From IMG/VR virus record IMGVR_UViG_3300043122_000207, positions 130,605 to 194,604 of that record: 64,000 nucleotides of DNA; one strand, written 5' to 3'. Origin of the DNA: a virus. Under the pieces are notes generated by a model. The model did not search any database. It saw nothing but the letters and a program-made list of their open reading frames with translations, and was not told the origin of the DNA. A program made the position numbers and the translations under genes. Position 1 is the first letter of the stretch. Each line of letters starts with the position of its first letter. Below are positions 1,318 through 50,607 of the stretch, piece after piece.

Positions 1318-1752
1318 TCACCCGTTAAAGTCTTTCTTGGGTACCTCTATAGACAAGTCGAATATATTGTTTTTATCAGATATCACATTGAAACTGAAAT
1401 TATCATCTGTTAATGCTTCAATTTTTACCGAATCAAAACCATCCTTTTCAACAGTCACATCTGACATACCAAAGGGTAAGTATGTTCTGCATTGGCTTCT
1501 TAATTCTTCTTCCATTTCAGCTATATTCTGATCTTTGTCCAACATGTGCATATAAGAAGGTAAGTCGAAACCTGCATCTGGTTGATGTTGTATAGAATTC
1601 TTTTTCATTAATAATAAATTTAAAAACATATTTATTTTTGCGAATTTACCTTTAAGAACACTTTGTTTACTGAATTTATCTATGTTTAATGTATAGTCTA
1701 AAACTGTACTTTTATCTATTGTGGTATATTCCAATTTGATACCCCCTATCAA
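1318..1752 (-). CDS. T4 gp25-like baseplate wedge protein
   Basis: About 140 aa; NLLLMKKNSIQHQPDAGFDL fits the gp25 'L...G...P.FG' pattern; late-type promoter at 1763-1775. Confidence 0.55.
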   Translation of the reverse strand: MIGGIKLEYTTIDKSTVLDYTLNIDKFSKQSVLKGKFAKINMFLNLLLMKKNSIQHQPDAGFDLPSYMHMLDKDQNIAEMEEELRSQCRTYLPFGMSDVTVEKDGFDSVKIEALTDDNFSFNVISDKNNIFDLSIEVPKKDFNG

Positions 1753-1842
1753 AGAAATTCTTCTATAATAGTGTTCTATTGCTTTTTAAATGGTATGGGA
1801 AACAAATGGTATAGTTTAATTATAAAACGGAGGTGTCTTAAG

Positions 1843-27400: not shown

Positions 27401-27911
27401 CCCTTATTTTATTAGAAGGGTTCGTATATCAGGTACAGATCCTTTAGTAGATGTTTGCGATGAATTGGGTTACACGATTAAACCTGAAAATGGTCATGAT
27501 CCTGAAAATCCAGAAACAGTAGTATTGGAGTTTCCTGTTAAAGCACCTGATGGTATAACTAAAGCAGATGTCAGTGCTATAGAGCAATTAGAGATGTATA
27601 GAATGTTTATGAAAACATATGTTGACCATAATGCATCAATTACTGTCCATGTTCGAGACGATGAATGGGGTGATGTTGAAAAATGGTTATGGGATAATTG
27701 GGATGATGTTGTTGGTGTTTCATTTATTTCGTATAACGATAATTTCTATGATCTTATGCCGTATGAAGAAATTGATGAAGAAACTTATTTAGAAATGGAA
27801 GATAATATGAAACCCTTTAGAACTTCTCTAATAAGTAAATATGAAATAGAGCACAAAGAAAGACTGATCGATGATTCTTCATGTGAGTCAGGTGCTTGTC
27901 CAGTAAGATAA
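24480..27911 (+). CDS. nrdJ: Class II (AdoCbl) ribonucleotide reductase with N-terminal ATP cone and intein
   Basis: VVKRDG ATP cone, YYRTYSR, NFNCSF, LMLGSGTGF, VVSGGVRRSS, NPC/AEI, TTVKPEGT, C-terminal CESGACPVR. Confidence 0.93.
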   Translation: MKTVVKRDGKETEYKPEKIKNAVLKAATEVDAKDPETISVRMMKTVDNLLEKHYYKEDETPSVEEIQDLVEKGLVYDNNYEVSKAYILYREKQNERRKFKNKDNGLLPHDYLSDFKHIVNPFPTELGQFIYYRTYSRWLEKEERRENWWETVKRAVEYNTSLLPTSKKEMKKLYKNVFSFKNFLAGRTLWAGGGEVSKKYPMSNFNCSFTVLDSIESYGDIFYLLMLGSGTGFRVLPEDVDKLPKFRTDIKVINKSYEPRDKPYRNEHTELVFNKNIATIHVGDSKEGWVQSLLRYFDLLTNSIYRDIDTVVFEYDSVRPKGEKLETFGGTASGYESLERMFKKIDTILNGVKKEKLDGMNRYSLRPIDAMDFANVIAENVVSGGVRRSSQICLFSADDKEIIEAKSNLYKQVDGEWVLNEEISHRQMSNNTIYYEDKPSKEQLSWHVKQMRFSGEPGFLNVEEAKRRREDFNGVNPCFTGDMKLLTDDGYKTFEELNGKNVGVVNINGEVTNGKVWSNGVKDVIELKTSDGKGIRCTPDHIFMDSDGNEIEAKDMKHKRVMPAFYKNTKNNTLYSVLGFIQGDGSLTRLNSETHKGIEINLSKKDDDVLDLLEGGQKQARERVYYTGAYQDELIELKFSSERLPNRTLPETFDEWDIDKKKNFIKGLYSANGSVIGGEGRGRVTLKSTCKDLIKHVSEFLKSICIDNYITTNKAKENEFQNGSYEMKESYDLNIGKHSERLKFYREIGFIQEYKELKLKRYLKLNAPKVISINEIGEEEVYDFNEPETHWGVVEGCVVHNCAEILLDSKGVCNLTTTNCMMFVNDGELDREGILEAQRLAARAGYRMANVEFELNDWDRINERDRLIGVSITGWQDMVNALGWDDSFKEALNKKDELISSYLTGGKTGDGYLPSGILKQIKLLNDMKKAAIDGAESLAAEVGGIEPKLVTTVKPEGTQSQMPTVSSGLHYSHSPYFIRRVRISGTDPLVDVCDELGYTIKPENGHDPENPETVVLEFPVKAPDGITKADVSAIEQLEMYRMFMKTYVDHNASITVHVRDDEWGDVEKWLWDNWDDVVGVSFISYNDNFYDLMPYEEIDEETYLEMEDNMKPFRTSLISKYEIEHKERLIDDSSCESGACPVR
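25911..26882 (+). mobile_element. 324-aa intein with LAGLIDADG homing endonuclease, inserted at the RNR thiyl-radical Cys
   Basis: Begins CFTGD after NP, ends VVHN before CAEI; LGFIQGDGS and FIKGLYSANGS blocks. Confidence 0.92.
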
Positions 27912-34835: not shown

Positions 34836-34958
34836 ATTTAATACACCTCCAAAGTGAGTATTACTAATTAAATTGTTCATATATACTATGGTTACAAAAT
34901 AAAAATACCGGGGAATCAACCCCGGTATTGAATTATATTTATATTTTGTTATTTTGTA

Positions 34959-36344: not shown

Positions 36345-38000
36345 ATGGCTGGAAATAATAGACAAGTAGCAGTTATACCTATTAAATATAAAGATAGAGA
36401 GTTAGCATTACCAGGAGAAATTATCCTGGATAGTGATGGACGAATGTTTGCTAAATTAAATGATGGAACTGTCAAACCCATACGTGGCGAACAATTTAAT
36501 TTTATTCAAGATTTAATTAAACATAATTGGCATGTCGGTGACCAGGAATCTTTAGATTATGATATGGCAAGTTGGATTAAAACTGGAGACTATGACCCTT
36601 CTATTGATTATGAACGAGGGACAATATTAATTAAGGAATATTATTTAGAACCTGATGGTACTGAAAAGGAAAGATGGAGGGCTATAGCACCTATAACGGA
36701 GTTAAGTGGTGTAATAGTCAATGATAATACTGGGAAAACTTTAGAGGATATGATAAATGATGATCTATCTGATGGTTTTATATCTACAGATGATAAATTA
36801 GGAGATGGTGATTTACAATATGTTTCGGGGAATACATTCACTATCGTTGGTGATTGGTTAGATATATTCTTAGAAGATAGAAAACTTAAAATGCTATCAG
36901 ATGGTAATGAAGTTTTTTCTTTGATAGATCATGTGAATTATGATGGGACAGTTACGACTGTGACATTGGAGGATTCTGTTCTTGGGTCATCTATAGAGGA
37001 GGTTTTATATTCTATAATATCCCCTGGTGAAACTGGACCTATTTCGGATACCGATACATATTCTAAGATAGCTGAATATTTGGAAGCTGGAAATAATATA
37101 GATATTGATTTATCTAATGCTGATAAATTGAAAATAAGTTCTCCAACCGATACTGATGGCATAAAATCAGTTATAGGTGATTGGATTCAAGGTGGCGGTG
37201 CGACCACTGTATCCTATAATCCGACTGCCGGTACTCTTAAGATATCCAGTGTCAACACACAACGAAGTGATGGAGAAATAAATAGTTTGATAGAAAGCCA
37301 CATGAATGGACCTGTTGAGATCGGGGATAATTTAAAAGTCGGTGGCAATATAGATTTAACGGGATTTGATTTAGTTTGGGATGAACATACAGACGGTGCT
37401 AGAATCACATTCGTTAATCCGAGTGATGCAGATGAAACATATATGCTTTTTGAAACAAACGATAACAGTGATGAATATTTTAAATGGGGGCATAAAGATG
37501 TTTCTTTTGAGGAATGGATGCGTTTAGAACAAAGTGGTTTGACAGTTAATGGTGAGATTACAGGCACAAAAGTTTGGAATGCAGTGTATAATGGTGATGT
37601 CGCGGAACTTTTTGATTGTGTAGAGCATCAAGAATTTGAACCTGGTGATGTTTTGGTTTCGATGAAAGGTTTATGTTGTAAAACATCAGAGGAAAAACAC
37701 CGTGGTGTTGTGGGTGTTGTTTCAGATCCTGAATCATATGGGTATTTGCTTGGTGGTCCTGAAAGAGATTCCATTGATGACTATGGTGAAAACCAACAAC
37801 CTGTAGGGATAACAGGGCGTACTAAAGTAAAAGTTACAGGTGATATAAAAGAGCATGATCTTTTGGTCACATCTAAAAAATCTGGATACGCAACAAAGAT
37901 TAATAGTGATGAATATATGCCCGGAACTGTTTTTGCTAAAGCTTTAGAAGGTAACAATGGTGAAGACAAAAAAATTTGGGCTTTAATAATGAACGCATAA
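36345..38000 (+). CDS. Tail fibre/appendage protein with C-terminal autocleaving intramolecular chaperone (peptidase G2-like)
   Basis: VWNAVYNGDVAELF, PGDVLV, VGVVSD, VGITGRTKVKV, DLLVTS..GYA, VFAKAL. Confidence 0.7.
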   Translation: MAGNNRQVAVIPIKYKDRELALPGEIILDSDGRMFAKLNDGTVKPIRGEQFNFIQDLIKHNWHVGDQESLDYDMASWIKTGDYDPSIDYERGTILIKEYYLEPDGTEKERWRAIAPITELSGVIVNDNTGKTLEDMINDDLSDGFISTDDKLGDGDLQYVSGNTFTIVGDWLDIFLEDRKLKMLSDGNEVFSLIDHVNYDGTVTTVTLEDSVLGSSIEEVLYSIISPGETGPISDTDTYSKIAEYLEAGNNIDIDLSNADKLKISSPTDTDGIKSVIGDWIQGGGATTVSYNPTAGTLKISSVNTQRSDGEINSLIESHMNGPVEIGDNLKVGGNIDLTGFDLVWDEHTDGARITFVNPSDADETYMLFETNDNSDEYFKWGHKDVSFEEWMRLEQSGLTVNGEITGTKVWNAVYNGDVAELFDCVEHQEFEPGDVLVSMKGLCCKTSEEKHRGVVGVVSDPESYGYLLGGPERDSIDDYGENQQPVGITGRTKVKVTGDIKEHDLLVTSKKSGYATKINSDEYMPGTVFAKALEGNNGEDKKIWALIMNA

Positions 38001-38021
38001 AATTGAAAGGGTGATGGTTTA

Positions 38022-38732
38022 ATGTTTGATCCACATTATATGCCTAGAGAAATAGTGGATAAAATGTACAATAAATATTTTATCCATAATTTCAAAATGA
38101 TGCTTAAATATGTAGATTATGATTGGGTTCATCCGATGGATGTAAAGACAAACGACCATATGGTTTCATGGGATAATGACCCGTATTTGGAAAAAACAAA
38201 AAATGAAAGAATAAAGTTAGGGTTGGATGTTTTGGAGAATGGGAACTATTGGCCATTCACAGGGGACTGGGGCATGAATGTTTCTGAAGGATGTCATAGG
38301 ATATGGTCTTTACAGGAGGTTTATAAAAACATCAAAAAATATGAAAAAAGATATTTGATGTTTAAGCATAGTTGGCAATTTTATTATGATTTTCGGAAAA
38401 TACAGCTCGACCATACAATTGAAGGTATCGATAATTTTGACGAATTATATAGCACATTCACAGAGTATGTGTATGTTCCTGATAAATGTATAGGTGAACC
38501 TTATTTAAAAAACACACTTGAAGACAAGACTGTAGATAAAATAGATTTTGGAGAATTTAACCTTTGTGTGATGGAATGTAAAAACATCTATGATATATTT
38601 TTGGCTTATATATCAATACCGGTTTTAATGAGGTATCCTTTAGCACACCAAGAGAAGATAGGTAAAAGAGTTCCTTCTTTACCACATATGAATGATGAGG
38701 GATTTTTTAGAGAATGGTACAGTAAAAGGTAG
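38022..38732 (+). CDS. ParB/Srx-fold protein, paralogue 1
   Basis: KLGLDVLENGNYWPF...SEGCHRIWSL. Confidence 0.6.
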   Translation: MFDPHYMPREIVDKMYNKYFIHNFKMMLKYVDYDWVHPMDVKTNDHMVSWDNDPYLEKTKNERIKLGLDVLENGNYWPFTGDWGMNVSEGCHRIWSLQEVYKNIKKYEKRYLMFKHSWQFYYDFRKIQLDHTIEGIDNFDELYSTFTEYVYVPDKCIGEPYLKNTLEDKTVDKIDFGEFNLCVMECKNIYDIFLAYISIPVLMRYPLAHQEKIGKRVPSLPHMNDEGFFREWYSKR

Positions 38733-38744
38733 GGGGTATATATA

Positions 38745-39848
38745 ATGGAAAAGGGAGATATTTTTTTTAATAGCTTAAATAGTGTGCAGTTGATATTGAA
38801 TAAGAAATGTAATTTTAATTGTAGCTATTGTTTTTCAGATAATGATGGTGAGGAAATGGATTCCGAATTACTGTTTTCTGATGTTTATAGATTTTTAAAA
38901 GAAAACTTATCGGATGATACAACTTTAAATTTTTTTGGTGGAGAACCAATGTTAGATTACCGAGAAAAGATAGACCCGTTAGTTTGTACTTTAAGGGATG
39001 ACGGGTTTGAAGGTGGTATAGGTATAGTTACAAATGGGAGTCTTTTCAACGAAAAAATAATGGATGAAATCATTGAGACAAATGTATCTGTTATGGTTAG
39101 TTTGGATGGTGATTATGAGACATTCTCTAAAAATAGAAATTCAGATCGTGAAGTTTTTGATGATATTATAAATAGTATAAAATATTTTGTTTCTAAAGAT
39201 TACCCGAATATCAGTGTTCGTTTAACATATGGCGAAGATGACATTGAGAATTTAACCAAAAATATTAAATTTATATATTCACTTGGGGTGGATGTGATTG
39301 AATTTTACCATGTTGATGAAATAAAACTCGATAAAAAATCAGCGGAAAAGTTAAAAGAAGAATTTGATAAATTGTTTTTCTTTTATGTGAAAAACGATGT
39401 TAAAATAAAATATATAGATGACTTGGTTCATTATTATTTAAATCCGGATGAGCATTCCAGAGGTAAATTACATCAGTGTGGATTGTTAAATAAAGATAAT
39501 TTTGATATGACAATCGATACTTCCGGTGATATTTTTACATGTCATCATTTTAATTCTGATGATAAAAAATATGATAGTTTTCATATCGGTAATATAAAGG
39601 AAACTTTCTATAAAGAAAAAATAAAGAATTTGAATTTGGGTCATTTAAAGAAAAAATATGTTTATGCACATAATGCAAGAGAAAATACCTGTTCAAAATG
39701 TAAATTGTATGATTTGTGTAATTCTATTTGTACTATGCAAAATATAAAGCAAAACAACAATATTTTTTTAAATTATAATGTCGATTGTTTTATAAAAAGG
39801 TCCTTCTATGATGTTATAGAATGGAGATTGAATGAGGTGAGACAATGA
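38745..39848 (+). CDS. Radical SAM/SPASM enzyme 1
   Basis: CNFNCSYC, FFGGEP, VTNG, SLDG; SPASM QCG..TC..CSKCKLYDLCNSIC..DC. Confidence 0.93.
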   Translation: MEKGDIFFNSLNSVQLILNKKCNFNCSYCFSDNDGEEMDSELLFSDVYRFLKENLSDDTTLNFFGGEPMLDYREKIDPLVCTLRDDGFEGGIGIVTNGSLFNEKIMDEIIETNVSVMVSLDGDYETFSKNRNSDREVFDDIINSIKYFVSKDYPNISVRLTYGEDDIENLTKNIKFIYSLGVDVIEFYHVDEIKLDKKSAEKLKEEFDKLFFFYVKNDVKIKYIDDLVHYYLNPDEHSRGKLHQCGLLNKDNFDMTIDTSGDIFTCHHFNSDDKKYDSFHIGNIKETFYKEKIKNLNLGHLKKKYVYAHNARENTCSKCKLYDLCNSICTMQNIKQNNNIFLNYNVDCFIKRSFYDVIEWRLNEVRQ

Positions 39849-40600
39849 CAGATAGGGATATTTTTGGTTGTTTGTATAAAGATTATATAGAAACCAATTT
39901 AAAAAATATTGTAAGTCACAGTTTATTCGATATAGAATTTGTGACTCCAGAAAAACTGGCATGTATGGTTGATCTACCAAATAAACCATATTTTTTTGAC
40001 GAGAATGGAAAGATAAAAAATGAGAATATTAATTTAGAGGGTATTGAGGGGTTAAATAAATCTAGAGATTTAGCTTTGGATATTCTAGAAAATGGTTTTT
40101 ATTATCCCTTGATTGTGCAAAAGGATGAGTTAGGGTATATTGGTGCTGAAGGGAGACACCGTTCCTTGGGTATTTTATCTTTATATAATAAGGGTGTTTG
40201 GCCCAGAGATAAAAGAATACCTGTTATAGTGTGTTATTTTGATTATCAGTCCCTCGTTAAGGGTGTAAAAGATGTTAGAAGTGGAAAAAAGGATTGTATA
40301 ATAGGGGAATACCCAATGAATGAAAGTCTTTTTTTGAATGCATCCACATTAGCAGATTTATTTTCAAAGAAAAATTATTTAATCAATTACGATAAAAAGA
40401 AACTTATTGATGATGAGTTAGGGATATTTCAATGCGAGATAAATGATCTCTATAGTTTTTTCATATTAAATGGTATTTATTATGGTGGTATAAGTAGAGA
40501 TATTTTGAAATATAAAAAAAGAGATAATCCTATTGAACCATCTCGTGTTATAAACAATATCCGTGATTTTTATTTATTTTTCAAAAATGGGAGTGGATGA
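39845..40600 (+). CDS. ParB/Srx-fold protein, paralogue 2
   Basis: LALDILENGFYYPLIV...AEGRHRSLG. Confidence 0.65.
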   Translation: MTDRDIFGCLYKDYIETNLKNIVSHSLFDIEFVTPEKLACMVDLPNKPYFFDENGKIKNENINLEGIEGLNKSRDLALDILENGFYYPLIVQKDELGYIGAEGRHRSLGILSLYNKGVWPRDKRIPVIVCYFDYQSLVKGVKDVRSGKKDCIIGEYPMNESLFLNASTLADLFSKKNYLINYDKKKLIDDELGIFQCEINDLYSFFILNGIYYGGISRDILKYKKRDNPIEPSRVINNIRDFYLFFKNGSG

Positions 40601-40601
40601 A

Positions 40602-41369
40602 ATGAAACATAGGGAAATAACCGAATACTTTTATAATGATTTTATTGATACAAATTTACGCAATTTAAACAACCACCCACAATTCAATATCGAATGGATG
40701 ACACCAGAAGAAATTATAAACAAACTGAATATACAGGGTGAAGAACATCATATGTTCGATGGTGATATGGATTATACTGATATACCTGGGGATCTTTTTC
40801 TCTATAACTCCTTTAATGATGCGAAAAAGTTGGGTTTGGATGTTCATAAAAATGGAATGTACAATCCCATTTTATTACAGAAGGTAGATGGTGTATATTC
40901 TAGATCCGAAGGAAGTCATCGTTTAAGAGGGATACTTCATCTTTATAAATCTGGTGTTTGGGATAAAAATAAGAAAATATGTTTTTTGGTGTGTGAATTT
41001 GGATACGAAAAAATGAGATTGGAAATTGTTGATATAAGAAAAAATATCAAAAAAACTTTAGATGATCCTGATATGTATAAGATGGACGATGTTTTAACTC
41101 TTAATGCACCTTTATATCATGGATGGGATAGTAGAACTAAACTCCTAGTCAAGTATGAAAGAAAAAAATTAACAAACGAAGAGCTTCAAATATACAGTTT
41201 TGATATAGAGAATTTTTATGACTTTTTTTTTATTAATGGTATTTATTATGGTGGTATAAGTAACGATTTATTTTTATACCATAATACAGATGAAATGATT
41301 CATCCTAGTCCAGTAGTTAATGATGAAAAATTTTTTAAAAAATATATGGGGGATGTTAAAGATGAGTAA
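40602..41369 (+). CDS. ParB/Srx-fold protein, paralogue 3
   Basis: LGLDVHKNGMYNPILL...SEGSHRLRG; shares NGIYYGGIS with paralogue 2. Confidence 0.65.
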   Translation: MKHREITEYFYNDFIDTNLRNLNNHPQFNIEWMTPEEIINKLNIQGEEHHMFDGDMDYTDIPGDLFLYNSFNDAKKLGLDVHKNGMYNPILLQKVDGVYSRSEGSHRLRGILHLYKSGVWDKNKKICFLVCEFGYEKMRLEIVDIRKNIKKTLDDPDMYKMDDVLTLNAPLYHGWDSRTKLLVKYERKKLTNEELQIYSFDIENFYDFFFINGIYYGGISNDLFLYHNTDEMIHPSPVVNDEKFFKKYMGDVKDE

Positions 41370-42510
41370 CATAAAGAGAGGTTTCACTTTTGATGAATAT
41401 GAAAAAAGTATTAAAAATAGATATAATGCTTCTTTAATATTTAAGATAACTAATTATTGTCCACACAATTGTAGTTATTGTTATCATAAATATAAAAATG
41501 AAGAAGATCTTGATAAAGAAATGTCTTTGGATGTTTTTAAAGAAGCACTTTATAAACTAGGGGATAGTTTCGAAGTTATAAAATTACACTTACATGGTGG
41601 TGAGCCACTTACTGTACCATATGAAAAGTTAAAGTCTATGTTGGAGATAATAGAAGAATATAGACAAAAAAGAAATAGGGGTAAATTTATAATCACTATG
41701 GCCACTAATTTATTGCTTCTTGATGAGGAAAAATTGGAAATTCTTGAAGAACACGATGTTAAGATTTCTACCAGTTATGATGGGAAATACCATAATGAAA
41801 AAAGAGCGGTTAATCTTGAGAGAGTGAAAGAAAAAATTGATATGACCCAAGGTGTTGGGATGATAGGTGTTATGACAAAAGATTGGGTTGAGGATTTGGA
41901 TGAATCAATAGATTATGTTGAAAATAGCAAAAAAGGGAAACCCTTGGTTAATCCAGTTATGGCTTTTCCTGCAGATGATGAAGATGTTCTCGATCCAGGT
42001 GATTATTCAGATTTTGTCATTCGACGTTTTGAAAAACAAATGGAGACTGGATTGTTTAGTTGGGGGACATTAAGATATCTACAAGCGGTTCTGGGTCATT
42101 CTGGCGACTGTTTTGTTTCGGGTTGTCTTAACTCAATATTTACAGTAACACCATCAGGAAATATAAAGGGTTGTGATTCCCGTAATGAAGATTATTGGTA
42201 TTATTGTAATATATCTGATATAGAATGTGTTGAAGATATTTATGAGACTGAAAAGTATAAGAATATGCAGAGGATGTATTACAATAGATTAAAAAAATGT
42301 GAAAAAGAATGTGATGTTTTTGAGTATTGTGTTGGTGGCTGTCCTAATAATTATAGGCTTAGACCGGATGGTGAATTCAGCAAAGATTACATGTGTTATG
42401 ATTATAAACAGATGATATACTATTTTCGGGATTTTTATGAAAGCTTTGGTAGTAAAGAAGAGAATCTACCCGAAAGAATTAAGGATGTTTTGATGTTAAA
42501 AAATGATTGA
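41362..42510 (+). CDS. Radical SAM/SPASM enzyme 2
   Basis: CPHNCSYC, LHGGEP, SYDG; SPASM CFVSGC..GC..CEKECDVFEYCVGGC..MC. Confidence 0.93.
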   Translation: MSNIKRGFTFDEYEKSIKNRYNASLIFKITNYCPHNCSYCYHKYKNEEDLDKEMSLDVFKEALYKLGDSFEVIKLHLHGGEPLTVPYEKLKSMLEIIEEYRQKRNRGKFIITMATNLLLLDEEKLEILEEHDVKISTSYDGKYHNEKRAVNLERVKEKIDMTQGVGMIGVMTKDWVEDLDESIDYVENSKKGKPLVNPVMAFPADDEDVLDPGDYSDFVIRRFEKQMETGLFSWGTLRYLQAVLGHSGDCFVSGCLNSIFTVTPSGNIKGCDSRNEDYWYYCNISDIECVEDIYETEKYKNMQRMYYNRLKKCEKECDVFEYCVGGCPNNYRLRPDGEFSKDYMCYDYKQMIYYFRDFYESFGSKEENLPERIKDVLMLKND

Positions 42511-43517
42511 TAAAAAGGAGATGGTGGGAAATGTTTAGTGTACCGTTTAATCAAACCGAGGAGGAAATAGAATTATATAGGGATAATGAAGATATTATAA
42601 AAGAAATTTATGCACCTATATCACCCAATTTTTTACACACTGCCCGACATATTGGGTGGTCAGAAAAAAATGATTATTTACTAGAGGAGCTTTTAAAAAC
42701 TAGTTCTGAAACATCCATAGGATTGAATCTCTTGATGAATTCTATAAATGACGATAAAATATTTATGATGAATGATTTAAAAGATATGTTAAACCAAGTG
42801 TATGAATATCAAAAACTTGGTTTAAAAAAAGTTACAGTTGCAAACCCTATTCTGTATCGGGCTATAGTGGAGAATTTACCCGGTATCGATATCGGTTTAT
42901 CTGTTATTGCTAATGCTGACACCATAGAAAAAATAAAGCAATTTTATGATTTTGGTAATCTAGTAGAATATTGTGTTCCACCAAAATTAACAAGAAACAG
43001 GGATTTTATAGAAAAGATAAAATCACTATTTGATGGTGTTAAAATTAAAATGATGGTTAATTGTTTTTGTAATCCAAACTGTGTTGGTTTTATACACCAT
43101 CACATTGAGGCTTCTAGTGGAAAAAAAGAAAAGGATACAGGGTATTTTAATTATGTTTGTAGCCAACATACAATAAACCCTCTTAAAAAGAATATAATTT
43201 TCCCCAATGAAATAGAGCATTATTCAGAGTATGTGGATGTTTTCAAAATATCAGGAAGAGAGACACATACCGAAACTATGTCGGAAATTTTGGATCTATA
43301 TAGAAATCCTAAAAAATTAAAGGAATATAATTTTCTTAAAGTTTTAGATGGATATAAAGCAAAGGGTGCTTACCTTTATGACATAAGTCCAAAGAATGGT
43401 CCAAGCAGAAACTTAGATTTAATAGAAAACTGTGACTATATGTGTATAGAAAATAAATGTGACCATTGTGGGGAAATGTTAGCTAAAAATTTTGAATTTA
43501 TGGAGGGTGAATTATAA
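42507..43517 (+). CDS. U32-family (Fe-S) protein
   Basis: EIYAP, VTVANP, LSVIAN, MMVNCFCNPNC, YVC, FKISGRE, C-terminal CDYMC..CDHC. Confidence 0.75.
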   Translation: MIKRRWWEMFSVPFNQTEEEIELYRDNEDIIKEIYAPISPNFLHTARHIGWSEKNDYLLEELLKTSSETSIGLNLLMNSINDDKIFMMNDLKDMLNQVYEYQKLGLKKVTVANPILYRAIVENLPGIDIGLSVIANADTIEKIKQFYDFGNLVEYCVPPKLTRNRDFIEKIKSLFDGVKIKMMVNCFCNPNCVGFIHHHIEASSGKKEKDTGYFNYVCSQHTINPLKKNIIFPNEIEHYSEYVDVFKISGRETHTETMSEILDLYRNPKKLKEYNFLKVLDGYKAKGAYLYDISPKNGPSRNLDLIENCDYMCIENKCDHCGEMLAKNFEFMEGEL

Positions 43518-44488
43518 TGAATATTATGTTAAATAATTATTGCAATTTAAATTGTGAATATTGTTTTGTAGAGAAACAATCAGGTCCCAATGCCAGAAAT
43601 ATAACTATGGAGAATTTTGCAAAATATATCAAATTCTTAAAAAACAATGGTATTAGAGAGGCTAAGTTGTTAGGAGGTGAACCAACACTTCATCCAAAAT
43701 TTAAAGCTATAGTTAAATATTTAAATAGTGATGATTTTTTTGAGAAAATATTGATATTTACTAATGCTCTATCTCTCAATGAAGAAATGGTTGATGAAAT
43801 AATTTCACCTAAAGTTAGTTTTTTAGTGAACTATAATAAAGAGGAAGATATAGGGAAAGAAAATTTTAAAAAAACATCTGATAATATCGATTATTTGGTT
43901 GGTGAATATAATAAACACAATAGTGGACATAGAGTCACTCTCGGTATAAACATATCTGAACCTGATTTTGATTATAAATATATAGTGGATAAGAGTCAGG
44001 AGTTGGGGTTAGATAATATAAGGTATAGTTTAACTGTGCCAACTAAAATAAATGAGGATTATGTGTCAATAAAAGAATATGAGAAATTTATACCTGGTAT
44101 CTTAGAATTTTTTAAATATGCTAATAGAAGGAATATTAGATTGAGTATCGACTGCAACAATATTCCAAAGTGTTTATTTGAAAAAGAAGAATTGTTGGAA
44201 GTGATTTTGGGTAATAACGATATGTGTGAAAGAAAATATTGCACAATGCCTCTTGATATAGATATGGATCTAAATGTCACTAGATGTTTTCCTTTTAAAA
44301 ACAGATTTGAAGTGAATTTAGAGGATTTTAATGATATGGGTGAGTTAGTAGATTATTTTGGGTCTAGAATAGACAAGTATAGGTTCAATGAACCCACATT
44401 TAAAGAATGTGTTGATTGTGAACTTTTTAAAGAAAGACTATGTCAAGGTGGATGTTTGATTTATAAATTTGGTAACAACAAACTCTAA
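43517..44488 (+). CDS. Radical SAM enzyme 3 with SPASM-like C-terminus
   Basis: CNLNCEYC, LLGGEPTLHP, FTN; C..C..RCFP..ECVDC..LCQGGC. Confidence 0.9.
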   Translation: MNIMLNNYCNLNCEYCFVEKQSGPNARNITMENFAKYIKFLKNNGIREAKLLGGEPTLHPKFKAIVKYLNSDDFFEKILIFTNALSLNEEMVDEIISPKVSFLVNYNKEEDIGKENFKKTSDNIDYLVGEYNKHNSGHRVTLGINISEPDFDYKYIVDKSQELGLDNIRYSLTVPTKINEDYVSIKEYEKFIPGILEFFKYANRRNIRLSIDCNNIPKCLFEKEELLEVILGNNDMCERKYCTMPLDIDMDLNVTRCFPFKNRFEVNLEDFNDMGELVDYFGSRIDKYRFNEPTFKECVDCELFKERLCQGGCLIYKFGNNKL

Positions 44489-44500
44489 GGGGGTTTCAAA

Positions 44501-44785
44501 ATGGAAATTAAAATTAATGGAACAGATGTAGTTAGTGATATTGAATATTGGGAAATAAGTAAAGCTAGTGAGGGAAATTTATCTACAATGATTTTGAAGG
44601 CTGAATTTTCTTCTAATTTGTTTGATTTGGTGGATACAGATACAACAGAGAATATTCTTTTTGTAGAGGATGATGAAAATAAATCGGTTAAGTTTGATAT
44701 TGACAATATTAAATTTATCGGACTAAAATCTAAAGAAGGTTCAATGCAGCAACAATTTGTAGCACATGGTGTTTTAGAGAAATAA
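44501..44785 (+). CDS. Small beta-rich hypothetical protein
   Basis: 94 aa, AAGGGG RBS, directly upstream of the W-repeat gene. Confidence 0.55.
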   Translation: MEIKINGTDVVSDIEYWEISKASEGNLSTMILKAEFSSNLFDLVDTDTTENILFVEDDENKSVKFDIDNIKFIGLKSKEGSMQQQFVAHGVLEK

Positions 44786-44803
44786 TTATTGGAGGTGGGT
44801 CTT

Positions 44804-45490
44804 GTGCCGTATAAAACTTGGTCTAACAGAACCATTTGGGGTAGATCTAATTTGGTTGGATTGATAGTTAAAAAAGATGACTTACAGGAAATAGAAGACG
44901 CGATAAAAAACCATAGAGATTTTTTAGATAACTACCCTCACAATTTCAATCAACCTAATACAAATTACCCAGTTACAAAAGAAGGTAAAATTGTATACGA
45001 TACTATAGATGACATAAAAGCCGGTATAAACTCCTTCTATTACGGAAATAACCCAAACAGTGGACTCGTTTCTGATGATAAAACAGGGGACCACATCACA
45101 GCTGAAGATATATCCTCTTTAAGGGATAGAGTCAACCATATAGAGACTAACTGTGTTGCGTGTGATACCTGTCAATTTTCTACTTGGACAGCCCGATGGT
45201 CAACTCGATGGACAACCCGATGGGACAATAATTGGGGTGCTAGTTGGACAACTAAATGGACAACCCGATGGGACAATAATTGGGGTGCTAACTGGACAAC
45301 CCGATGGGATAATAATTGGACCAATAGTTGGGGTAACAGTTGGGGTGGCAGTTGGGGTTCTAGTTGGAATAACAACTGGGGTGCCAATTGGGGTACACAC
45401 TGGAATAGTCGTTGGGGTTCTAGTTGGGGTGGAAGATGGGGTAGCCGATGGGGTAGTAGTTGGTCTAGTAAATCCTCTTACTTCTCTTAA
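44804..45490 (+). CDS. W-x-x-x repeat protein, putative radical SAM substrate
   Basis: GTG at 44804 after GGAGGTG; roughly 120-aa N-terminal domain, CVACDTC, then 24 consecutive WXXX units. Confidence 0.8.
   Translation: MPYKTWSNRTIWGRSNLVGLIVKKDDLQEIEDAIKNHRDFLDNYPHNFNQPNTNYPVTKEGKIVYDTIDDIKAGINSFYYGNNPNSGLVSDDKTGDHITAEDISSLRDRVNHIETNCVACDTCQFSTWTARWSTRWTTRWDNNWGASWTTKWTTRWDNNWGANWTTRWDNNWTNSWGNSWGGSWGSSWNNNWGANWGTHWNSRWGSSWGGRWGSRWGSSWSSKSSYFS
45185..45472 (+). repeat. 24 x 12-bp coding repeat (TGG-N9), including a 34-bp exact duplication at 45209-45242 and 45257-45290
   Basis: Read directly from the sequence. Confidence 0.95.
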
Positions 45491-45523
45491 TACCCAAAAA
45501 CAAATAATGGGGGTCGAAAATAC

Positions 45524-45883
45524 ATGAATAAGAACGATACAATATATGGATTCAAAAGACCCCCCATTTTAATAGATGGGGTGTCTATTTCTGATTATTC
45601 GAAAACCAAATATGATATTTTAAATGAAGAATTTCATATTTTTTTTTATGGACTTGACGGTACCAGTAGATTGAAAGTTTTAGAGAGGATAAATTTTTTT
45701 AATGGTATCATGGATAAAGATAATGTTGGTTTCTGTTTTAAAAATAGTGATGGGGAATCAATTGGGTATTTAAAAAACCCTAAATTACTAAGATACGGTA
45801 TATCTGGTGAGACAGTGGATAGACAAAAATTGGAAGTTGTTTTTGGTGGTAAATTAATTTACAAACTTGGGGGTGACATTTAA
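45524..45883 (+). CDS. Small beta-rich hypothetical protein
   Basis: 119 aa, directly downstream of the W-repeat gene; TAATG coupling to the next gene. Confidence 0.55.
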   Translation: MNKNDTIYGFKRPPILIDGVSISDYSKTKYDILNEEFHIFFYGLDGTSRLKVLERINFFNGIMDKDNVGFCFKNSDGESIGYLKNPKLLRYGISGETVDRQKLEVVFGGKLIYKLGGDI

Positions 45884-47022
45884 TGAAAATATGTATGATA
45901 AGTGATCCCATGGCTTCTTACCCGGAAAAGTCATACCATAGTAGTTCTATTCAATTAAACCATATGGTTGATGGTCTTTTGGAATTGGGACACGATATAG
46001 ATCTGGTTATTGGGTCTGGTGAGAATATTGATAATATAGAGGGTTTAAAGATATTTGATTATCCTAACAGATATGTCGATTTAGGGGATAAGTTAAATGA
46101 TCATAGACACCAGGCAACTAACGACTTCTTTCACAATAGGGTTATTGGTGTTCTAAGGGATAATATGGGAGAGTACGATATTATACATGTACATGATACC
46201 AATTTGTTTAATAAACTGAAATTGATTGATGATTTGAATACACCTATATTGTACACTCTACATGTTAGTATTGATTACGATGATTCTAATGAAACATATA
46301 TGTCTGCACCTTATTTGCAAGATACTGTAGACAAAACAGAAGGCAATTATTTTACTGCAATGAGTAATTTCGTTAAAGATAACTCAGTTAAGAATGCCGA
46401 TAAAATATATGTTGTTTATAATGGTATAGATTTAGATATGTTCAGTTTTGAAGAAAACAAAGAGGATTTTTTTATATTTGTGGGAAGGGTATCCGATAAG
46501 AAAGGTTTTTCCTATATATTGGATGCGTTGGATCATTATGATTTCAATATTAAGATTGCTGGACCTTTAATGTATAATAATGATAGTGACAATGATACAC
46601 TTAATGTTGATGGTAGATTGAGAAATTACAATATAGAGGAGTATTTTAACAGAAGTAATGTTGAATACCTCGGTATATTAGACCACGATCGGGTTTCAGA
46701 ATATTTGTCTAAGGCTAAAGGTTTGATTCATCTTCATGAGTGGGGTGAAGGTTTTTCTATGGCTATAGCTGAATCTTTATCGTGTGGTACACCGGTTTTA
46801 TCTACTGATCGTGGTGGACCTGGTCACTATCTTTTAGATGGATATGATTCCATAGTTTTAGAGGGTGAGACATTCAAAGACCCTATAAAGGTGGTTTCTT
46901 CTCTTAAAGATTTGGAAAATATAAAACCAGAAAATTGTAGGATTTCAGCAGAAAGATTTGATAAAAATAAATTGGGAAATCAATATGAGGAAGTTTATCG
47001 AGATATTCTAGAAAATATGTAA
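45883..47022 (+). CDS. GT-B (GT4-like) glycosyltransferase
   Basis: MKICMIS, DIIHVH, VVYNGID, FVGRV..KKG, EGFSMAIAESLSCGTPV. Confidence 0.9.
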   Translation: MKICMISDPMASYPEKSYHSSSIQLNHMVDGLLELGHDIDLVIGSGENIDNIEGLKIFDYPNRYVDLGDKLNDHRHQATNDFFHNRVIGVLRDNMGEYDIIHVHDTNLFNKLKLIDDLNTPILYTLHVSIDYDDSNETYMSAPYLQDTVDKTEGNYFTAMSNFVKDNSVKNADKIYVVYNGIDLDMFSFEENKEDFFIFVGRVSDKKGFSYILDALDHYDFNIKIAGPLMYNNDSDNDTLNVDGRLRNYNIEEYFNRSNVEYLGILDHDRVSEYLSKAKGLIHLHEWGEGFSMAIAESLSCGTPVLSTDRGGPGHYLLDGYDSIVLEGETFKDPIKVVSSLKDLENIKPENCRISAERFDKNKLGNQYEEVYRDILENM

Positions 47023-47035
47023 GGGGATGGATAAT

Positions 47036-47686
47036 ATGGAAAAAGATATTGGTATTTTTATGCCTGGTAGACTGAAAAGTGAAAGGTTACCTAATAAACT
47101 ATTATTGGATATCGATGGTACCAATTTATGGGAGATAGCATGTAAAAAATTATCCAAATTACCAGATAAATATGGTAAATATGTTTTAGTTTATGACGAC
47201 AAATTAATCGATATTGCAAATGAATATGGGTTGAATGTTATAAAAAGAGATATTGGTACTACTGAGGCTGATGGTCCATTGACATATATTTATGGTGGGG
47301 TTTCAGAGATAGATAAAACCCATATTATGTTTCTTAACCCCTGTCTTTTATTTTTGACAGTCGAAACTATTGAAAATTCTATTGAGGAATTTTTAAATTC
47401 TGATGCAGACTATGCAACAAGTGTCAAAAAATTGGAGAATTGGATTTTTGATTCTGAGGGTGATAATTTAAATAAAATCAAATATAAATTTTTATCAACT
47501 AAAGATATCGACCCCCTTTATCAAGCCGCACATGCTTTCCATATTTTTAATAAAGAAAATTTTTTTAAAGATGGTTATATGTTAAAAAAGGGACATCAAT
47601 TGATTGAGATACCTGAAGATGAAACTATTGATGTTGATACAAGGGATGATTTTTTATATGCTAAATGGAGGTGGAGTCTTACTTGA
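47036..47686 (+). CDS. neuA: CMP-nonulosonate synthetase (NeuA-like cytidylyltransferase)
   Basis: PGRLKSERLPNKLL, DVDTRDDF. Confidence 0.8.
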   Translation: MEKDIGIFMPGRLKSERLPNKLLLDIDGTNLWEIACKKLSKLPDKYGKYVLVYDDKLIDIANEYGLNVIKRDIGTTEADGPLTYIYGGVSEIDKTHIMFLNPCLLFLTVETIENSIEEFLNSDADYATSVKKLENWIFDSEGDNLNKIKYKFLSTKDIDPLYQAAHAFHIFNKENFFKDGYMLKKGHQLIEIPEDETIDVDTRDDFLYAKWRWSLT

Positions 47687-47964
47687 AATATGTTATAGAT
47701 ATTGATGGTACTATATGTACACAAGAGGATGACTATGAAGATGCCAAACCTTTAAAAGAAAATATAGAACGATTTAATAAATTGTACGACGAAGGTCATA
47801 CAGTCTGGTATTTTACAGCTAGAGGTACAGAAACTGGTATAGATTGGACCGAAACCACTAAAACACAATTTGAAAAATGGGGTGTTAAATACCATGAACT
47901 TCTATTTGGTAAACCCAGTGCTGATGTATATATAGATGATAGGTGTGAGAATATAAATAAATAA
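47683..47964 (+). CDS. Short HAD phosphatase (EcbF/BcbF-like)
   Basis: IDIDGT, FTARG, GKP.ADVYIDD. Confidence 0.8.
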   Translation: MKYVIDIDGTICTQEDDYEDAKPLKENIERFNKLYDEGHTVWYFTARGTETGIDWTETTKTQFEKWGVKYHELLFGKPSADVYIDDRCENINK

Positions 47965-47986
47965 ATGGATGGGATGGGTGGTTATT

Positions 47987-48805
47987 GTGATGTTTATTGG
48001 GGAGATTGGAATAAACCATAACGGTGATCTTAGAGGTTGTAAGAGACTAATAGCATCCTGTAAGGCTTCTGGTGTGGATATTGTTAAGTTTCAGAAAAGA
48101 AATCCTGATGTATGTGTCCCAGATAATAAGAAAGATATATTAAGAGAAACCCCTTGGGGGACTATGAGATATATTGATTATAAGAAAAAGATTGAATTCG
48201 GTAAGGAAGAGTTTGACGAGATAGATAAATTTTGTAACCAAATAGGAATTGAGTGGACTTCGAGTGTCTGGGATATAGATAGTTTAGAATTCATTTTAAA
48301 TTATGATGTTCCGTTTATCAAAATACCAAGTGCTATGGTCACAAATAAAAAACTATTGAGAAAGATTAAATCTTCAGATATTCCAGTTATTATGTCAACA
48401 GGAATGAGCACAAAAAAAGAAATAAAAGATGCAGTTGATATACTGTCTGGTTGTGATTTATCAATTCTACATTGTAATAGTAGTTACCCATGTGCTGATG
48501 AGGAAATAAATTTAAAAACAATACAGACACTTAAAAAGGAATTTCCAAATCATACTATTGGTTACTCTGGACACGAGAGTGGTATATTACCCAGTGTTTA
48601 TGCTAGAGCAGCTGGTGCTGATATAATAGAAAGACATGTTACTTTGGATAGAAATATGTGGGGAACAGATCAATCCTCTAGTCTTGAACCTATTCAACTA
48701 AAAAAATTGATTAATAGGTTATGGGAGCTTGATAGGATAATGGGTGACGGTAAGATTAAAGTCTATGATTCTGAAAAAGAGATTAAAGCTAAACTTAGAA
48801 AATAA
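47987..48805 (+). CDS. neuB: N-acetylneuraminate/nonulosonate synthase (NeuB-like), no C-terminal SAF domain
   Basis: EIGINHNGD, KFQKR, KIPS, MSTGM, LHCNSSYP, GYSGHE, IERHVT, DQSSSLEP. Confidence 0.92.
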   Translation: MMFIGEIGINHNGDLRGCKRLIASCKASGVDIVKFQKRNPDVCVPDNKKDILRETPWGTMRYIDYKKKIEFGKEEFDEIDKFCNQIGIEWTSSVWDIDSLEFILNYDVPFIKIPSAMVTNKKLLRKIKSSDIPVIMSTGMSTKKEIKDAVDILSGCDLSILHCNSSYPCADEEINLKTIQTLKKEFPNHTIGYSGHESGILPSVYARAAGADIIERHVTLDRNMWGTDQSSSLEPIQLKKLINRLWELDRIMGDGKIKVYDSEKEIKAKLRK

Positions 48806-48809
48806 TTGT

Positions 48810-48840
48810 ATACCAGGGTTTATTCCCTGGTATTTTTTTT
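48810..48840 (+). terminator. Terminator closing the fibre/radical SAM/NeuB operon
   Basis: ATACCAGGG/CCCTGGTAT stem plus T run. Confidence 0.85.
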
Positions 48841-48940
48841 ATTTTTTGGTAACACCATTATAGAGGTTTTAGGTGTTTAAAATTATATATTATATACTTG
48901 GAATTGAAAAAAAAAAATATAGAAAAAAGGAGATGTTAAA

Positions 48941-49393
48941 ATGAAAATTTATGTGGGTAAATTTAATGAAAATGTTGATGTTGAAATGGGTTTTTTTAAT
49001 GAGAAAACGGCAGCAGAATTAACTGCTAGTTATAAGGAGGTTGATTTAGATTTATCTGATTTTAAGAAAAACAATCTAAAAGATTTTAAAAAAGAATACA
49101 GTGATTGGATGGAACACGAATTTAAACACAAAAGAGAGGAACTGGATGAGGATAAAAAAATAGTACAAACATGGTCTAATCCTGAGGAGAGAAAAGCTCA
49201 CGAAGATAAATACCCAAGTCTTAGTAAATGGGGTGTTGATGATATAGAATTAAATTCTGAGCATCTAGAGTACGTTTATATTGATCACAGTAACCATGAT
49301 GATACAGTTGTAAAAAAACACATTGAGATAAAGGACGAGATGTCTATAGATGAGCTTGTTGATGTTAGACATTTTGTGGACGATAATTTTTAA
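48941..49393 (+). CDS. Hypothetical acidic early protein
   Basis: Early motif at 48882; AAGGAG RBS. Confidence 0.55.
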   Translation: MKIYVGKFNENVDVEMGFFNEKTAAELTASYKEVDLDLSDFKKNNLKDFKKEYSDWMEHEFKHKREELDEDKKIVQTWSNPEERKAHEDKYPSLSKWGVDDIELNSEHLEYVYIDHSNHDDTVVKKHIEIKDEMSIDELVDVRHFVDDNF

Positions 49394-49446
49394 AAAATAT
49401 TTTGATTAACAATATTTATGAAACCAAATAAAAAGGAGATGTTAAA

Positions 49447-49908
49447 ATGAAAGTATTTATTAGCAATTTGGAAAAAGAAACACCTCAGGTTAATTTTAAT
49501 ATGGTAGATGGTTTGGAAGATGGAGATTATAAAGAAGGTAATCTTATAATGTCAGAGATCACTAAAGAAAATGTTTTGGATATGAAACATGAATTGGGTG
49601 ACCATATTGAAGTTGTGGCAGAAGAGATGCGTATGGATAAATTACCTATAGAAAATAAAGAACCTGTTGTTATGGAGGCCAGTCTTTCAGAAGTTAATTC
49701 GAGACATATCGTTATAGAAGAGGATTGTGCTGTGGGTGTGGTTGTTGAATCTGCAACAGAAGAAAATAAAAACCATGTCGTGTATTTAGATCACGAAATT
49801 AATGATGTTCAAGAACACGATATGAACCCAGAGAGTTTTATGATTGAGGACTATGTTACAATTCGTGATACAATAAGTGAAGCTAAAAATTGGGAACCAA
49901 AAGAATAA
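49447..49908 (+). CDS. Hypothetical acidic protein, probable paralogue of 48941..49393
   Basis: Identical leader AAAAGGAGATGTTAAAATGAAA; Y(I/L)DH motif shared. Confidence 0.5.
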   Translation: MKVFISNLEKETPQVNFNMVDGLEDGDYKEGNLIMSEITKENVLDMKHELGDHIEVVAEEMRMDKLPIENKEPVVMEASLSEVNSRHIVIEEDCAVGVVVESATEENKNHVVYLDHEINDVQEHDMNPESFMIEDYVTIRDTISEAKNWEPKE

Positions 49909-49968
49909 GCAGTGTTTGCGGTGGTCTCTTCCACCGCAATAATTTTTAAACCAAAGGGGATGGTAAAC

Positions 49969-50607
49969 ATGGGTGTCAAATTGAAAGGTTTGTCTTTAAA
50001 TATCAAAAAAGAAGATATTGATGTAGAATTAGAAATCGATGAAGTCACATTAGATTTAGGAGACTTATTCTCCTTGATAAGTGAAGATGAAATTATGAGC
50101 TTACTTGGTGATATCGATATCACTGAGGAAGGATTTGGAGAGTCACTGTCATATGATAATGAAAAGGAAAACAATAAAGAAATTAGTCTTAATAAAAAGA
50201 ATGTAATGTATGACTTAAATAATATGATGAGCGAAACATCTAAGAGTAAAAACCCAAAAGGTTTATTACCTATTGATCAATATTTTGAATCTAGTTTTGA
50301 TTATTGTGTTTGGTTTGTGGATGATGAAAGTTTTCTTTCAAATTCTTTCATAAATGCTGATAGTAATACACCTGTTGACTTTTTTGTTGGTGTCCACTTT
50401 AAAGATTATAATGGAAAAACTGCAATGGGTTTTGAAACTCAATTTGCATTTGAAAATTTTATGGGTGATGTACAACGTAAATTTGAAAAACACTTACCAT
50501 CAAATAATGTCCAAATAGGTGTGATGATGGAACCACTGACACAGATTAGAAAGAAAGCTGGAGATAATGTTTTTGGTGAATTAAAATACACAAACACTCA
50601 GATTTAA
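49969..50607 (+). CDS. Hypothetical protein
   Basis: AAGGGGA RBS; no family recognised. Confidence 0.5.
   Translation: MGVKLKGLSLNIKKEDIDVELEIDEVTLDLGDLFSLISEDEIMSLLGDIDITEEGFGESLSYDNEKENNKEISLNKKNVMYDLNNMMSETSKSKNPKGLLPIDQYFESSFDYCVWFVDDESFLSNSFINADSNTPVDFFVGVHFKDYNGKTAMGFETQFAFENFMGDVQRKFEKHLPSNNVQIGVMMEPLTQIRKKAGDNVFGELKYTNTQI

Follow-up and report, generated by a model that had tools for sequence, protein, structure and literature searches.

The 64-kb window of viral DNA analysed here, from IMG/VR record IMGVR_UViG_3300043122_000207, carries on its + strand an operon (36345-48805) in which a protein with a long tryptophan ladder is encoded among three radical S-adenosylmethionine (rSAM) enzymes, a U32-family iron-sulphur (Fe-S) protein and several candidate helper proteins. 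All genes of the operon are co-oriented and closely joined: neighbours either overlap by 1-8 nt or are separated by no more than 33 nt, as measured with gene starts shared with independent gene calls on other assemblies. An earlier note on this DNA, made from the letters alone, had listed 14 tightly joined genes over 38022-48805, encoding a ParB-fold protein, an rSAM enzyme, two further ParB-fold proteins, an rSAM enzyme, a U32 protein, an rSAM enzyme, a small protein, the Trp-repeat protein, another small protein, a glycosyltransferase, a cytidylyltransferase, a HAD protein and a NeuB-like protein; open reading frame (ORF) and family assignments confirm their number, order, strand and spacing. 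Ahead of them lies a gene for a tail-fibre-like protein of 551 amino acids (aa) (36345..38000, +; PHROG 19567 'tail fiber protein', E 2.7e-9), which is the first gene of the same transcription unit. A strong intrinsic terminator with a 9-bp stem, 5 GC pairs and a T-run is located at 48810..48833 (+), and a bidirectional terminator is found upstream at 34904-34929; between 36345 and 48805, the + strand has no terminator of strength comparable to that at 48810-48833. The tail-fibre-like gene and the 14 genes behind it are predicted to form one transcription unit ended at 48810-48833.

The Trp-repeat protein (228 aa; 44804..45490, +) consists of an N-terminal domain, a cysteine-containing hinge and the tryptophan ladder. 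Its gene starts with GTG at 44804, served by a GGAGGT ribosome-binding site, and the homologues begin MPKK or MPHK at the equivalent point. The ladder comprises 24 consecutive W-x-x-x units (residues 128-223; 45185..45472, +), with 24 Trp at an exact 4-residue spacing, just as had been read from the translation before. Ladder position +1 is occupied by G, T, D, S or N, position +2 by T, N, S, A or G, and position +3 by R, S, N, K or H, never by Gly. The DNA repeats encoding the ladder have diverged (68-91% matches), yet the TGG codon is kept in 24/24 of them, and two near-identical assemblies of the phage contain two non-synonymous ladder differences, neither at a Trp. An out-of-frame ORF of 124 aa with GQPDG-type repeats (45153-45527) was rejected as a gene, being a by-product of the 12-nt repeat periodicity.

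When 1.84 billion representatives were searched exhaustively with HMMER, this protein proved to have only two true homologues, P0005 (194 aa, E 2.7e-36) and P0006 (cut at the contig end, E 8.3e-24), and a further cut copy on contig L010 was reached via relatives of the U32 protein. The proteins P0007-P0019, which contain period-4 repeats such as WPTx or EWVS, were rejected as compositional matches rather than homologues. The N-terminal domain of ~115 aa is conserved among the homologues, and across the four homologous proteins the longest run of invariant columns is the hinge, ET(N/S)CV(A/S)C(D/E)TCQF(S/A)TW, immediately before the ladder. In the window the hinge reads ETNCVACDTCQFSTW (residues 114-128; 45143..45187, +) and holds the only 3 Cys of the protein. 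It contains a Cys-X3-Asp motif, present once per protein, in which Asp is replaced by Glu in P0006. The ladders of P0005 and L010 are built of WSGQ or WSGN units, and that of P0006 of a 10-residue unit, W-T-G-N-Y-S-N-W-T-N, with aromatics at spacings 4, 3 and 3; hence a strict WXXX period, around which the earlier note had built its reading, is not shared by all members of the family. Because the ladder units vary among homologues, the family trait is the Cys hinge, on which the earlier note was silent, followed by a dense aromatic/polar ladder, rather than WXXX as such. In P0005 (1922-2506 of contig L005), a second Cys cluster, ACPACPACP, follows ten W-S-G-x units and is itself followed by two further W units; the ladder is thus flanked on both sides by CxxCxxC motifs. 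Scans at E up to 10 gave no meaningful NCBIfam or Pfam match for the family, and no match to a peptidoglycan-binding domain beyond PG_binding_1 on 1/4 homologues at E 0.06; reading of the sequence found no obvious N-terminal hydrophobic signal stretch.

The three rSAM enzymes, encoded on the + strand at 38745..39848 (rSAM1), 41362..42510 (rSAM2) and 43517..44488 (rSAM3), all pass the cut-off of 29.5 bits for the Pfam Radical_SAM model PF04055 (55.9, 56.3 and 61.5 bits), with the CX3CX2C motif at residues 22/26/29, 33/37/40 and 9/13/16, respectively. The C-terminal Cys residues of rSAM1 (245, 266, 316, 319, 325, 329 and 348) constitute the full 7-Cys SPASM pattern, and comparable C-terminal sets are carried by rSAM2, also SPASM-type, and by rSAM3, which is of a short SPASM/twitch type; full-length alignments to PapB, anSME and DynA back these assignments. 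The best curated match of rSAM1 is PapB (NF047865), at 134.5 bits over the full length, below the cut-off of 340. Against the maturase of CXXX-repeat systems, TIGR04115, rSAM1 scores 56.5 bits (cut-off 350), and TIGR04115 is not among the matches listed for rSAM2 or rSAM3; membership in the CXXX-repeat family, or in any curated family, is therefore not borne out. For rSAM2, the best curated matches are TIGR04083, DynA (74), AmcB (74), HxsB and YhhB, at 70-84 bits and far below their cut-offs. Its individual scores include 71.7 bits for HxsB (cut-off 370; N-terminal part, E 4.8e-20), 69.9 for YhhB, 62.8 for GrrM/OscB, 56.3 for FxsB and 51.3 for XyeB, mostly over the N-terminal 130 residues, and among solved structures in the PDB it comes closest to anSME, with an alignment that spans the full length (E 1e-12). 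The nearest solved relatives of rSAM3 are SkfB and SuiB, over the core. These matches to PapB, DynA, AmcB, anSME, SkfB and SuiB place the three SPASM-type enzymes closest to peptide or protein maturases, among which they represent new subfamilies.

The U32-family protein (328 aa; 42531..43517, +) is the conserved partner of rSAM2. Its match to PF01136 scores 29.8 bits (cut-off 22.4) and covers profile positions 2-60 of 233 only; it also matches PHROG 5757 at E 9e-15. Nine Cys are invariant in three homologues, arranged as CxCx3C and a C-terminal CX3CX4CX2C; there was no match to an NCBIfam U32 equivalog, and a PDB sequence search gave nothing meaningful. A second, very distant U32-like paralogue is encoded at 23491-24450 (23% identity to 42531-43517, E 1e-5, no Pfam match), just upstream of a large ORF at 24480-27911, and may have a nucleotide-related role separate from the operon. 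U32-like 'peptidase' proteins also occur in 221 cultured T4-like phage genomes, with 26-27% identity over the central 60% of the window protein; such records (e.g. Yersinia phage phiR1-RT g050 and RB69ORF050c) are annotated only as 'peptidase' or 'hypothetical protein'.

Two sets of paralogues accompany the enzymes. The first comprises three ParB/sulfiredoxin (Srx)-like proteins, 27-37% identical, that share an EG(C/R/S)HR motif: paralogue 1 (236 aa, EGCHR; 38022..38732, +), identified by paralogue alignment, with fold evidence borrowed from paralogue 2; paralogue 2 itself (251 aa, EGRHR; 39845..40600, +); and paralogue 3 (255 aa, EGSHR; 40602..41369, +), which is 37% identical to paralogue 2. 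An AlphaFold2 (AF2) model of paralogue 2 is of medium quality, with a predicted local distance difference test (pLDDT) score of 54, and 60-84 in the core. Its Foldseek matches are almost exclusively ParB, Noc, KorB, sulfiredoxin and SbnI (best E 4.5e-3, probability 0.96-0.98), its best VIA match is sulfiredoxin 6ky4 (Z 5.1), and the ParB-like profile matches sulfiredoxin at E 1 only. Because these structural matches are weak, the ParB/Srx fold is likely for the three paralogues, not proven. In a seven-sequence alignment, the adaptor-like proteins of related phages align end to end with the ParB-like paralogues, with shared N- and C-terminal motifs, and hhalign of the ParB-like profile with one of them, the 208-aa protein of L007, gives a probability of 2%. 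The second set consists of small proteins, of which one (94 aa; 44501..44785, +) directly precedes the Trp-repeat gene wherever that gene was found, and the other (119 aa; 45524..45883, +) follows it and is a distant paralogue of the first by sequence comparison. This family is weak but consistent (80-106 aa), and in L008 and L010 another copy precedes rSAM2; it matches nothing in Pfam, PHROG or NCBIfam, with nothing meaningful from the Pfam and NCBIfam scans even at E up to 10, and has neither a conserved Cys motif nor a conserved aromatic one.

The association of these components extends to related phages. The U32 protein, used as a search handle, returned eight more homologues (43-49% identity), in the same gene context wherever this was visible, and the contigs of five of the eight were read for gene order. 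On L008, of which L005 and L006 represent the same stretch, the order is an adaptor-like protein of 185 aa, a small protein, rSAM2, U32, rSAM3, a small protein and the Trp-repeat protein, followed on L005 by a further rSAM enzyme. L010 encodes rSAM1, an adaptor, a small protein, rSAM2, U32, a small protein and the Trp-repeat protein; L007 encodes the 208-aa adaptor-like protein, rSAM2, U32, a small protein and the Trp-repeat protein; L012 and L013 encode a small protein, an rSAM enzyme of 376-395 aa and U32; and L011 encodes U32, rSAM3, a small protein, an adaptor and an unknown protein. Identities to the window proteins in L005/L008 are 46-49% for U32, 50% for rSAM3 and 45% for the Trp-repeat protein; in L007, 35% for rSAM2, 49% for U32 and 39% for the Trp-repeat protein; and in L010, 43% for rSAM1, 40% for rSAM2, 43% for U32 and 43% for the Trp-repeat protein. 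Homologues of rSAM2 (35-40%) stand directly upstream of U32 in L007, L008 and L010, and the slot is held in L012 and L013 by rSAM genes matched by position and size. In L005/L008 and L011, the U32 and small genes are separated by a homologue of rSAM3 (~50%), which L007 and L010 lack at that place. In each lineage found, the Trp-repeat gene comes after a gene for a small protein of ~90 aa, next to U32 and rSAM homologues; thus every homologue found has both rSAM and U32 genes beside it, contrary to the usual lack of rSAM neighbours that the earlier note had named as a refutation of its reading. The flanks differ, with a tail fibre here, and dCMP deaminase, uracil-DNA glycosylase (UDG), Tmk-like kinase and AGT-like glycosyltransferase in the relatives. 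L007 is a 5.5-kb contig (NCBI GCA_048623315.1, JBMCBS010000063.1) with UDG and dCMP deaminase genes, in a metagenome-assembled genome labelled 'archaeon'; either this contig comes from a phage and was binned wrongly, or it hints at archaea as further hosts of such viruses.

Among 50,697 phage records, neither a megablast search with the operon nor tblastn searches with the Trp-repeat protein and a ParB-like paralogue gave a match. Word-indexed searches with the Trp-repeat protein and the ParB-like alignment returned only proteins of this phage itself, and related-locus searches confirmed nothing in viral contigs (with the Trp-repeat protein, rSAM1 and the U32 alignment), in metagenome contigs (with the Trp-repeat alignment) or in genome contigs (with the U32 alignment). 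The literature searched contained no relevant paper on phage systems combining radical SAM enzymes and U32 with a Trp-repeat protein, or on radical SAM systems with CXXX repeats. Hence the earlier note's statement that it knew of no characterised phage system of this kind agrees with both the cultured phage records and the literature searched.

We read this locus as a phage-encoded protein-maturation module that has the 228-aa Trp-repeat protein as its substrate, and, judging from the sequences and from analogy with characterised systems, rate the chance that this is correct as a little better than even. Because the gene for the Trp-repeat protein has rSAM and U32 neighbours in all the related phages found, the protein is probably chemically modified by these neighbouring enzymes. 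By analogy, rSAM2, with its anSME-like fold and its closeness to DynA-type cyclophane formers, would abstract a side-chain hydrogen and link Trp rings to neighbouring side chains, and we infer that such cross-linking would occur at the 24 ladder sites; the outcome would be a covalently stapled aromatic ladder. The residue at position +3, drawn from R, S, N, K, H, Q and D, is never Gly. The PapB-like rSAM1 would install a thioether in the invariant hinge at Cys-X3-Asp/Glu, and the U32 protein would hydroxylate aromatic rings without O2, in the manner of UbiU/UbiV. The ParB/Srx-like and small proteins would act as adaptors or chaperones for these leaderless enzymes, comparable to WprC and HxsD.

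The product of such a module is likely to differ from a ribosomally made peptide with post-translational modifications (RiPP). Pfam, PHROG and NCBIfam scans of 36345-50607 found no RiPP recognition element (RRE), protease or transporter family, and the rSAM enzymes start directly at the cluster motif. The description of the system as RiPP-like consequently fails in its strict sense, given a 228-aa target with a conserved domain of ~115 aa and no RRE, protease or exporter. Because the operon lacks a protease and exporter, and because the N-terminal domain is large, the product probably remains a modified protein rather than becoming a secreted RiPP. It may be a component of the virion or of an infection stage, since this late operon is headed by a tail-fibre-like gene. 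A fuller picture, which we offer tentatively and regard as rather doubtful in its entirety, is that phages of anaerobes rebuild one of their own late proteins, such that a 24-rung Trp ladder would become a stapled, hydroxylated aromatic rod with a thioether-knotted hinge. Such a rod could be a virion appendage or an infection effector; we know of no counterpart among known proteins.

Several observations weigh against a maturation module acting on the Trp-repeat protein. The strict W period of 4 is not conserved, given the W/Y spacings of 4-3-3 in P0006, and all three rSAM enzymes miss the curated family cut-offs by a wide margin. The EGxHR sequence, which is the ParB catalytic motif, is missing in the adaptor-like proteins of the relatives; since it is missing, nucleotide-dependent catalysis does not appear to be a core requirement of the module. 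On the 4.1-kb contig L011, the adaptor-like gene follows the small protein and no Trp-repeat protein is visible, and in three relatives (L007, L008 and L011) the module follows nucleotide-metabolism genes. The AF2 model of the Trp-repeat protein, built from three sequences, is unusable (pLDDT 34), and a predicted complex of its N-terminal part with the 94-aa protein scored 0.01, which is neither support for binding nor evidence against it. Furthermore, the phages may be fairly close kin, and hence their shared gene order is not fully independent evidence.

In L007, L008 and L011, the module comes after dCMP deaminase, and genes for UDG, a kinase resembling Tmk and a DNA glucosyltransferase resembling T4 AGT lie nearby. 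This raises the alternative that nucleotides or phage DNA are what the rSAM, U32 and ParB-like enzymes modify, for example through O2-independent pyrimidine C5 hydroxylation followed by radical chemistry and glycosylation, with the Trp-repeat protein as an unrelated neighbour or a DNA-associated protein. It would suit the hydroxylation of RNA pyrimidines or quinones by characterised U32 enzymes (PMC6747719), the binding of DNA and CTP by the ParB fold, the carriage of U32 homologues by T4-like phages, and the large ORF 24480-27911 that adjoins the distant U32 paralogue at 23491-24450. However, SPASM rSAM enzymes nearest PapB, DynA and anSME modify proteins or peptides, and the known nucleic-acid rSAM enzymes belong to other classes; the ParB catalytic motif has been lost in the relatives; the window operon lies among virion genes, not replication genes; and the retention of the Trp-repeat protein and its small partner within the module across lineages would be left unexplained. 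We consequently think modification of nucleotides or DNA an unlikely function for the module. It is likewise improbable, in our judgement, that the Trp-repeat protein goes unmodified and has a structural or adhesive role, for instance as a fibre accessory with a Trp ladder that stacks on glycans, and that the enzymes have another target, be it the small proteins, the tail fibre encoded alongside or some molecule of the host. The tail-fibre-like gene at the start of the operon would agree with this, as would an N-terminal domain that is conserved and could dock onto the virion; nor is there a chemical tie between the enzymes and Trp, and the small-protein family, found twice per locus, is linked equally well to the enzymes. 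Yet no Cys or aromatic motif is conserved in these small proteins, the relatives retain the module with no visible fibre gene nearby, the repeat region resembles known multi-site rSAM substrates, and the invariant Cys-X3-Asp/Glu hinge suits a PapB-like enzyme.

A third possibility accepts modification of the Trp-repeat protein and differs in its fate: as a sacrificial multi-core precursor, it would have its 24 units cross-linked or oxidised, and then cut out as a small Trp-derived product of the PQQ or mycofactocin type. The repeat architecture fits such a role, the combination of rSAM enzyme and hydroxylase resembles the logic of PqqE/PqqB, and the cross-link in PqqA spans E-x-x-x-Y, the same period as the ladder. 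However, the operon has no protease, oxidase or exporter, the N-terminal domain is far larger than a leader peptide, and the repeat units are heterogeneous and differ between homologues. Hence no uniform small product is to be expected, and this fate seems to us very improbable.

The last genes of the operon encode sugar enzymes, which the earlier note had counted among its tailoring functions. They comprise a GT4-family glycosyltransferase (45883..47022, +; PF00534 72.2 bits, PF13439 49 bits); a cytidylyltransferase resembling CMP-sugar synthetases (47036..47686, +; PF02348 (CTP_transf_3) 26.2 bits against a cut-off of 22.6), which scores 39.6 bits against PseF, below the cut-off; a minimal HAD-like phosphatase of 93 aa (47683..47964, +), with a weak PF08282 match (E 0.004), DxDxT and DD motifs in the translation, and 36% identity to a 133-aa HAD in L008; and a NeuB-family nonulosonate synthase without the C-terminal SAF domain (47990..48805, +; PF03102 242 bits). 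The last of these reaches 234.9 bits against TIGR03569, over profile positions 2-277 of 329, which is below the cut-off of 399.65; by PF03102 it belongs to the NeuB family. The set is specific to this phage and not conserved with the module. In L008, a different and more distant set (517-3982, ~3 kb upstream of the rSAM/U32 module) comprises genes for a HAD phosphatase, a sugar-phosphate nucleotidyltransferase of 561 aa and a glucosyltransferase resembling T4 AGT; it may serve DNA glucosylation or correspond to the window sugar genes. GT4 enzymes normally do not use CMP-nonulosonates, and hence a tailoring role for the sugar genes is conjecture.

The genomic setting is that of a large phage with a GC content of ~30%. 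The window makes up the 3' 64 kb of an IMG/VR contig of 146 kb, rated 82% complete, and the same proteins are found on Logan contigs of up to 194.7 kb; the term 'jumbo phage' used for it before is thus roughly right. Genes neighbouring the operon are virion or late genes, encoding a virion structural protein, the terminase large subunit and a tail protein, and a match to a phiKZ-type internal head protein near the operon falls just under the Pfam cut-off (26.4 against 27 bits). The terminase groups among phiKZ-like large phages, and its nearest cultured relatives are the Fusobacterium phages JD-Fnp (38-40% identity); because of this closeness to Fusobacterium phages, its sequence suggests an anaerobic, low-GC host. 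Comparison of the window with Logan assemblies L002/L003 (99.63% identity) identified 46 single-nucleotide polymorphisms (SNPs) across 12.5 kb. The tail-fibre-like gene accounts for 36/46 (28 synonymous and 8 non-synonymous), and the enzyme genes are almost invariant; because the SNPs fall there, recombination or diversification restricted to the fibre gene is suggested. Beyond the terminator are three co-oriented ORFs of 150, 153 and 231 aa (48941-50607) without a family match, the first two of which start alike (MKIYVGKF and MKVFISNL) and may be paralogues.

If the Trp-repeat protein is indeed the substrate, then the RiPP-type radical chemistry of viruses would include tryptophan in addition to cysteine ladders, the U32 family would gain its first protein substrate, and the known components of protein maturation would come to include a U32 Fe-S enzyme and adaptors of the ParB/Srx fold. 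For enzymologists, the three rSAM enzymes, U32 and helpers would offer a compact, co-transcribed set that could be expressed with its presumed substrate. The Trp-repeat family is absent from Pfam, NCBIfam and PHROGs, and forms three clusters among the 1.84 billion representatives; being so rare, and missing from family databases, it would otherwise stay invisible. Detection of the modified protein in the virion would directly show that phages cross-link the proteins of their own particles, of which the literature searched contains no description.

One parallel is with the CXXX-repeat systems (TIGR04115 maturase, TIGR04114/04117 targets and PF27846), in which the target likewise has a non-repetitive N-terminal part and then a reactive residue at each fourth position, and the target gene lies beside SPASM rSAM genes. 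Of the Atlas clusters with a Pfam name, the one nearest the N-terminal domain of the Trp-repeat protein also carries PF27846 (score 0.84), which is to be taken only as a lead. The repeated residue here is however Trp rather than Cys, the Trp-repeat protein matches no NCBIfam target model even at E 10, and the module has U32 and ParB-like proteins as additional components, fixed or frequent. A second parallel is with PapB, which cross-links Cys-X3-Asp motifs and also accepts Glu (PMC9413430), and with CrpC, a SPASM rSAM enzyme that installs ranthionine links on a full-size protein, CrpA (PMC13692751). As in PapB/PapA (freyrasin) and CrpC/CrpA, an enzyme whose best match is PapB is paired with a protein whose hinge holds the PapB motif. 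Unlike PapA, the window protein has one such motif (P0005 has two Cys clusters), and the bulk of its tail is without Cys; unlike PapB, rSAM1 has no apparent N-terminal RRE.

The cyclophane maturases (YhhB/XyeB/GrrM/FxsB, DynA, DarE and WprB) resemble the system in the presence of Trp or Tyr at short regular intervals, beside polar residues with side-chain C-H bonds. In one of them, WprB and the small non-PqqD helper WprC (97-103 aa) form a link from Trp-C5 to Arg-Cγ at three WPR motifs (PMC11851443), and the small proteins of the window match WprC in size. The system differs from these maturases in that rSAM2 scores 50-75 bits against cut-offs of 310-450, with several matches covering the N-terminal rSAM core only; in its four-residue rather than three-residue unit, with Y-S-N and W-T-N units in P0006 only; and in its substrate, a 228-aa phage protein without leader or protease logic. 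To our knowledge, U32 and ParB-like partners do not occur in cyclophane maturase systems. U32 proteins are themselves O2-independent hydroxylases of aromatic and heteroaromatic rings (PMC6747719). The window protein is like the hydroxylases UbiU/UbiV, RlhA and TrhP in its Pfam match above cut-off, its conserved Fe-S Cys clusters and its likely anaerobic setting, and unlike them in its presumed substrate, as a protein would be a novel target for the U32 family. Its Cys pattern also differs from what we take to be that of UbiU/UbiV.

A further parallel is the HXS anti-phage system, in which HxsB, HxsC and the small protein HxsD mature the His-Xaa-Ser-repeat effector HxsA (PMC13128918). The window differs from it in missing the HxsB cut-off, in small proteins without an NCBIfam match, in Trp repeats, in being phage-encoded and in the presence of U32. 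What would be shared is the plan, in which several rSAM enzymes and a small protein mature a protein that has a folded domain and short tandem motifs, and whose product acts as a protein. By these comparisons, the operon is best read as a Trp analogue of the cysteine-ladder and HXS-type systems.

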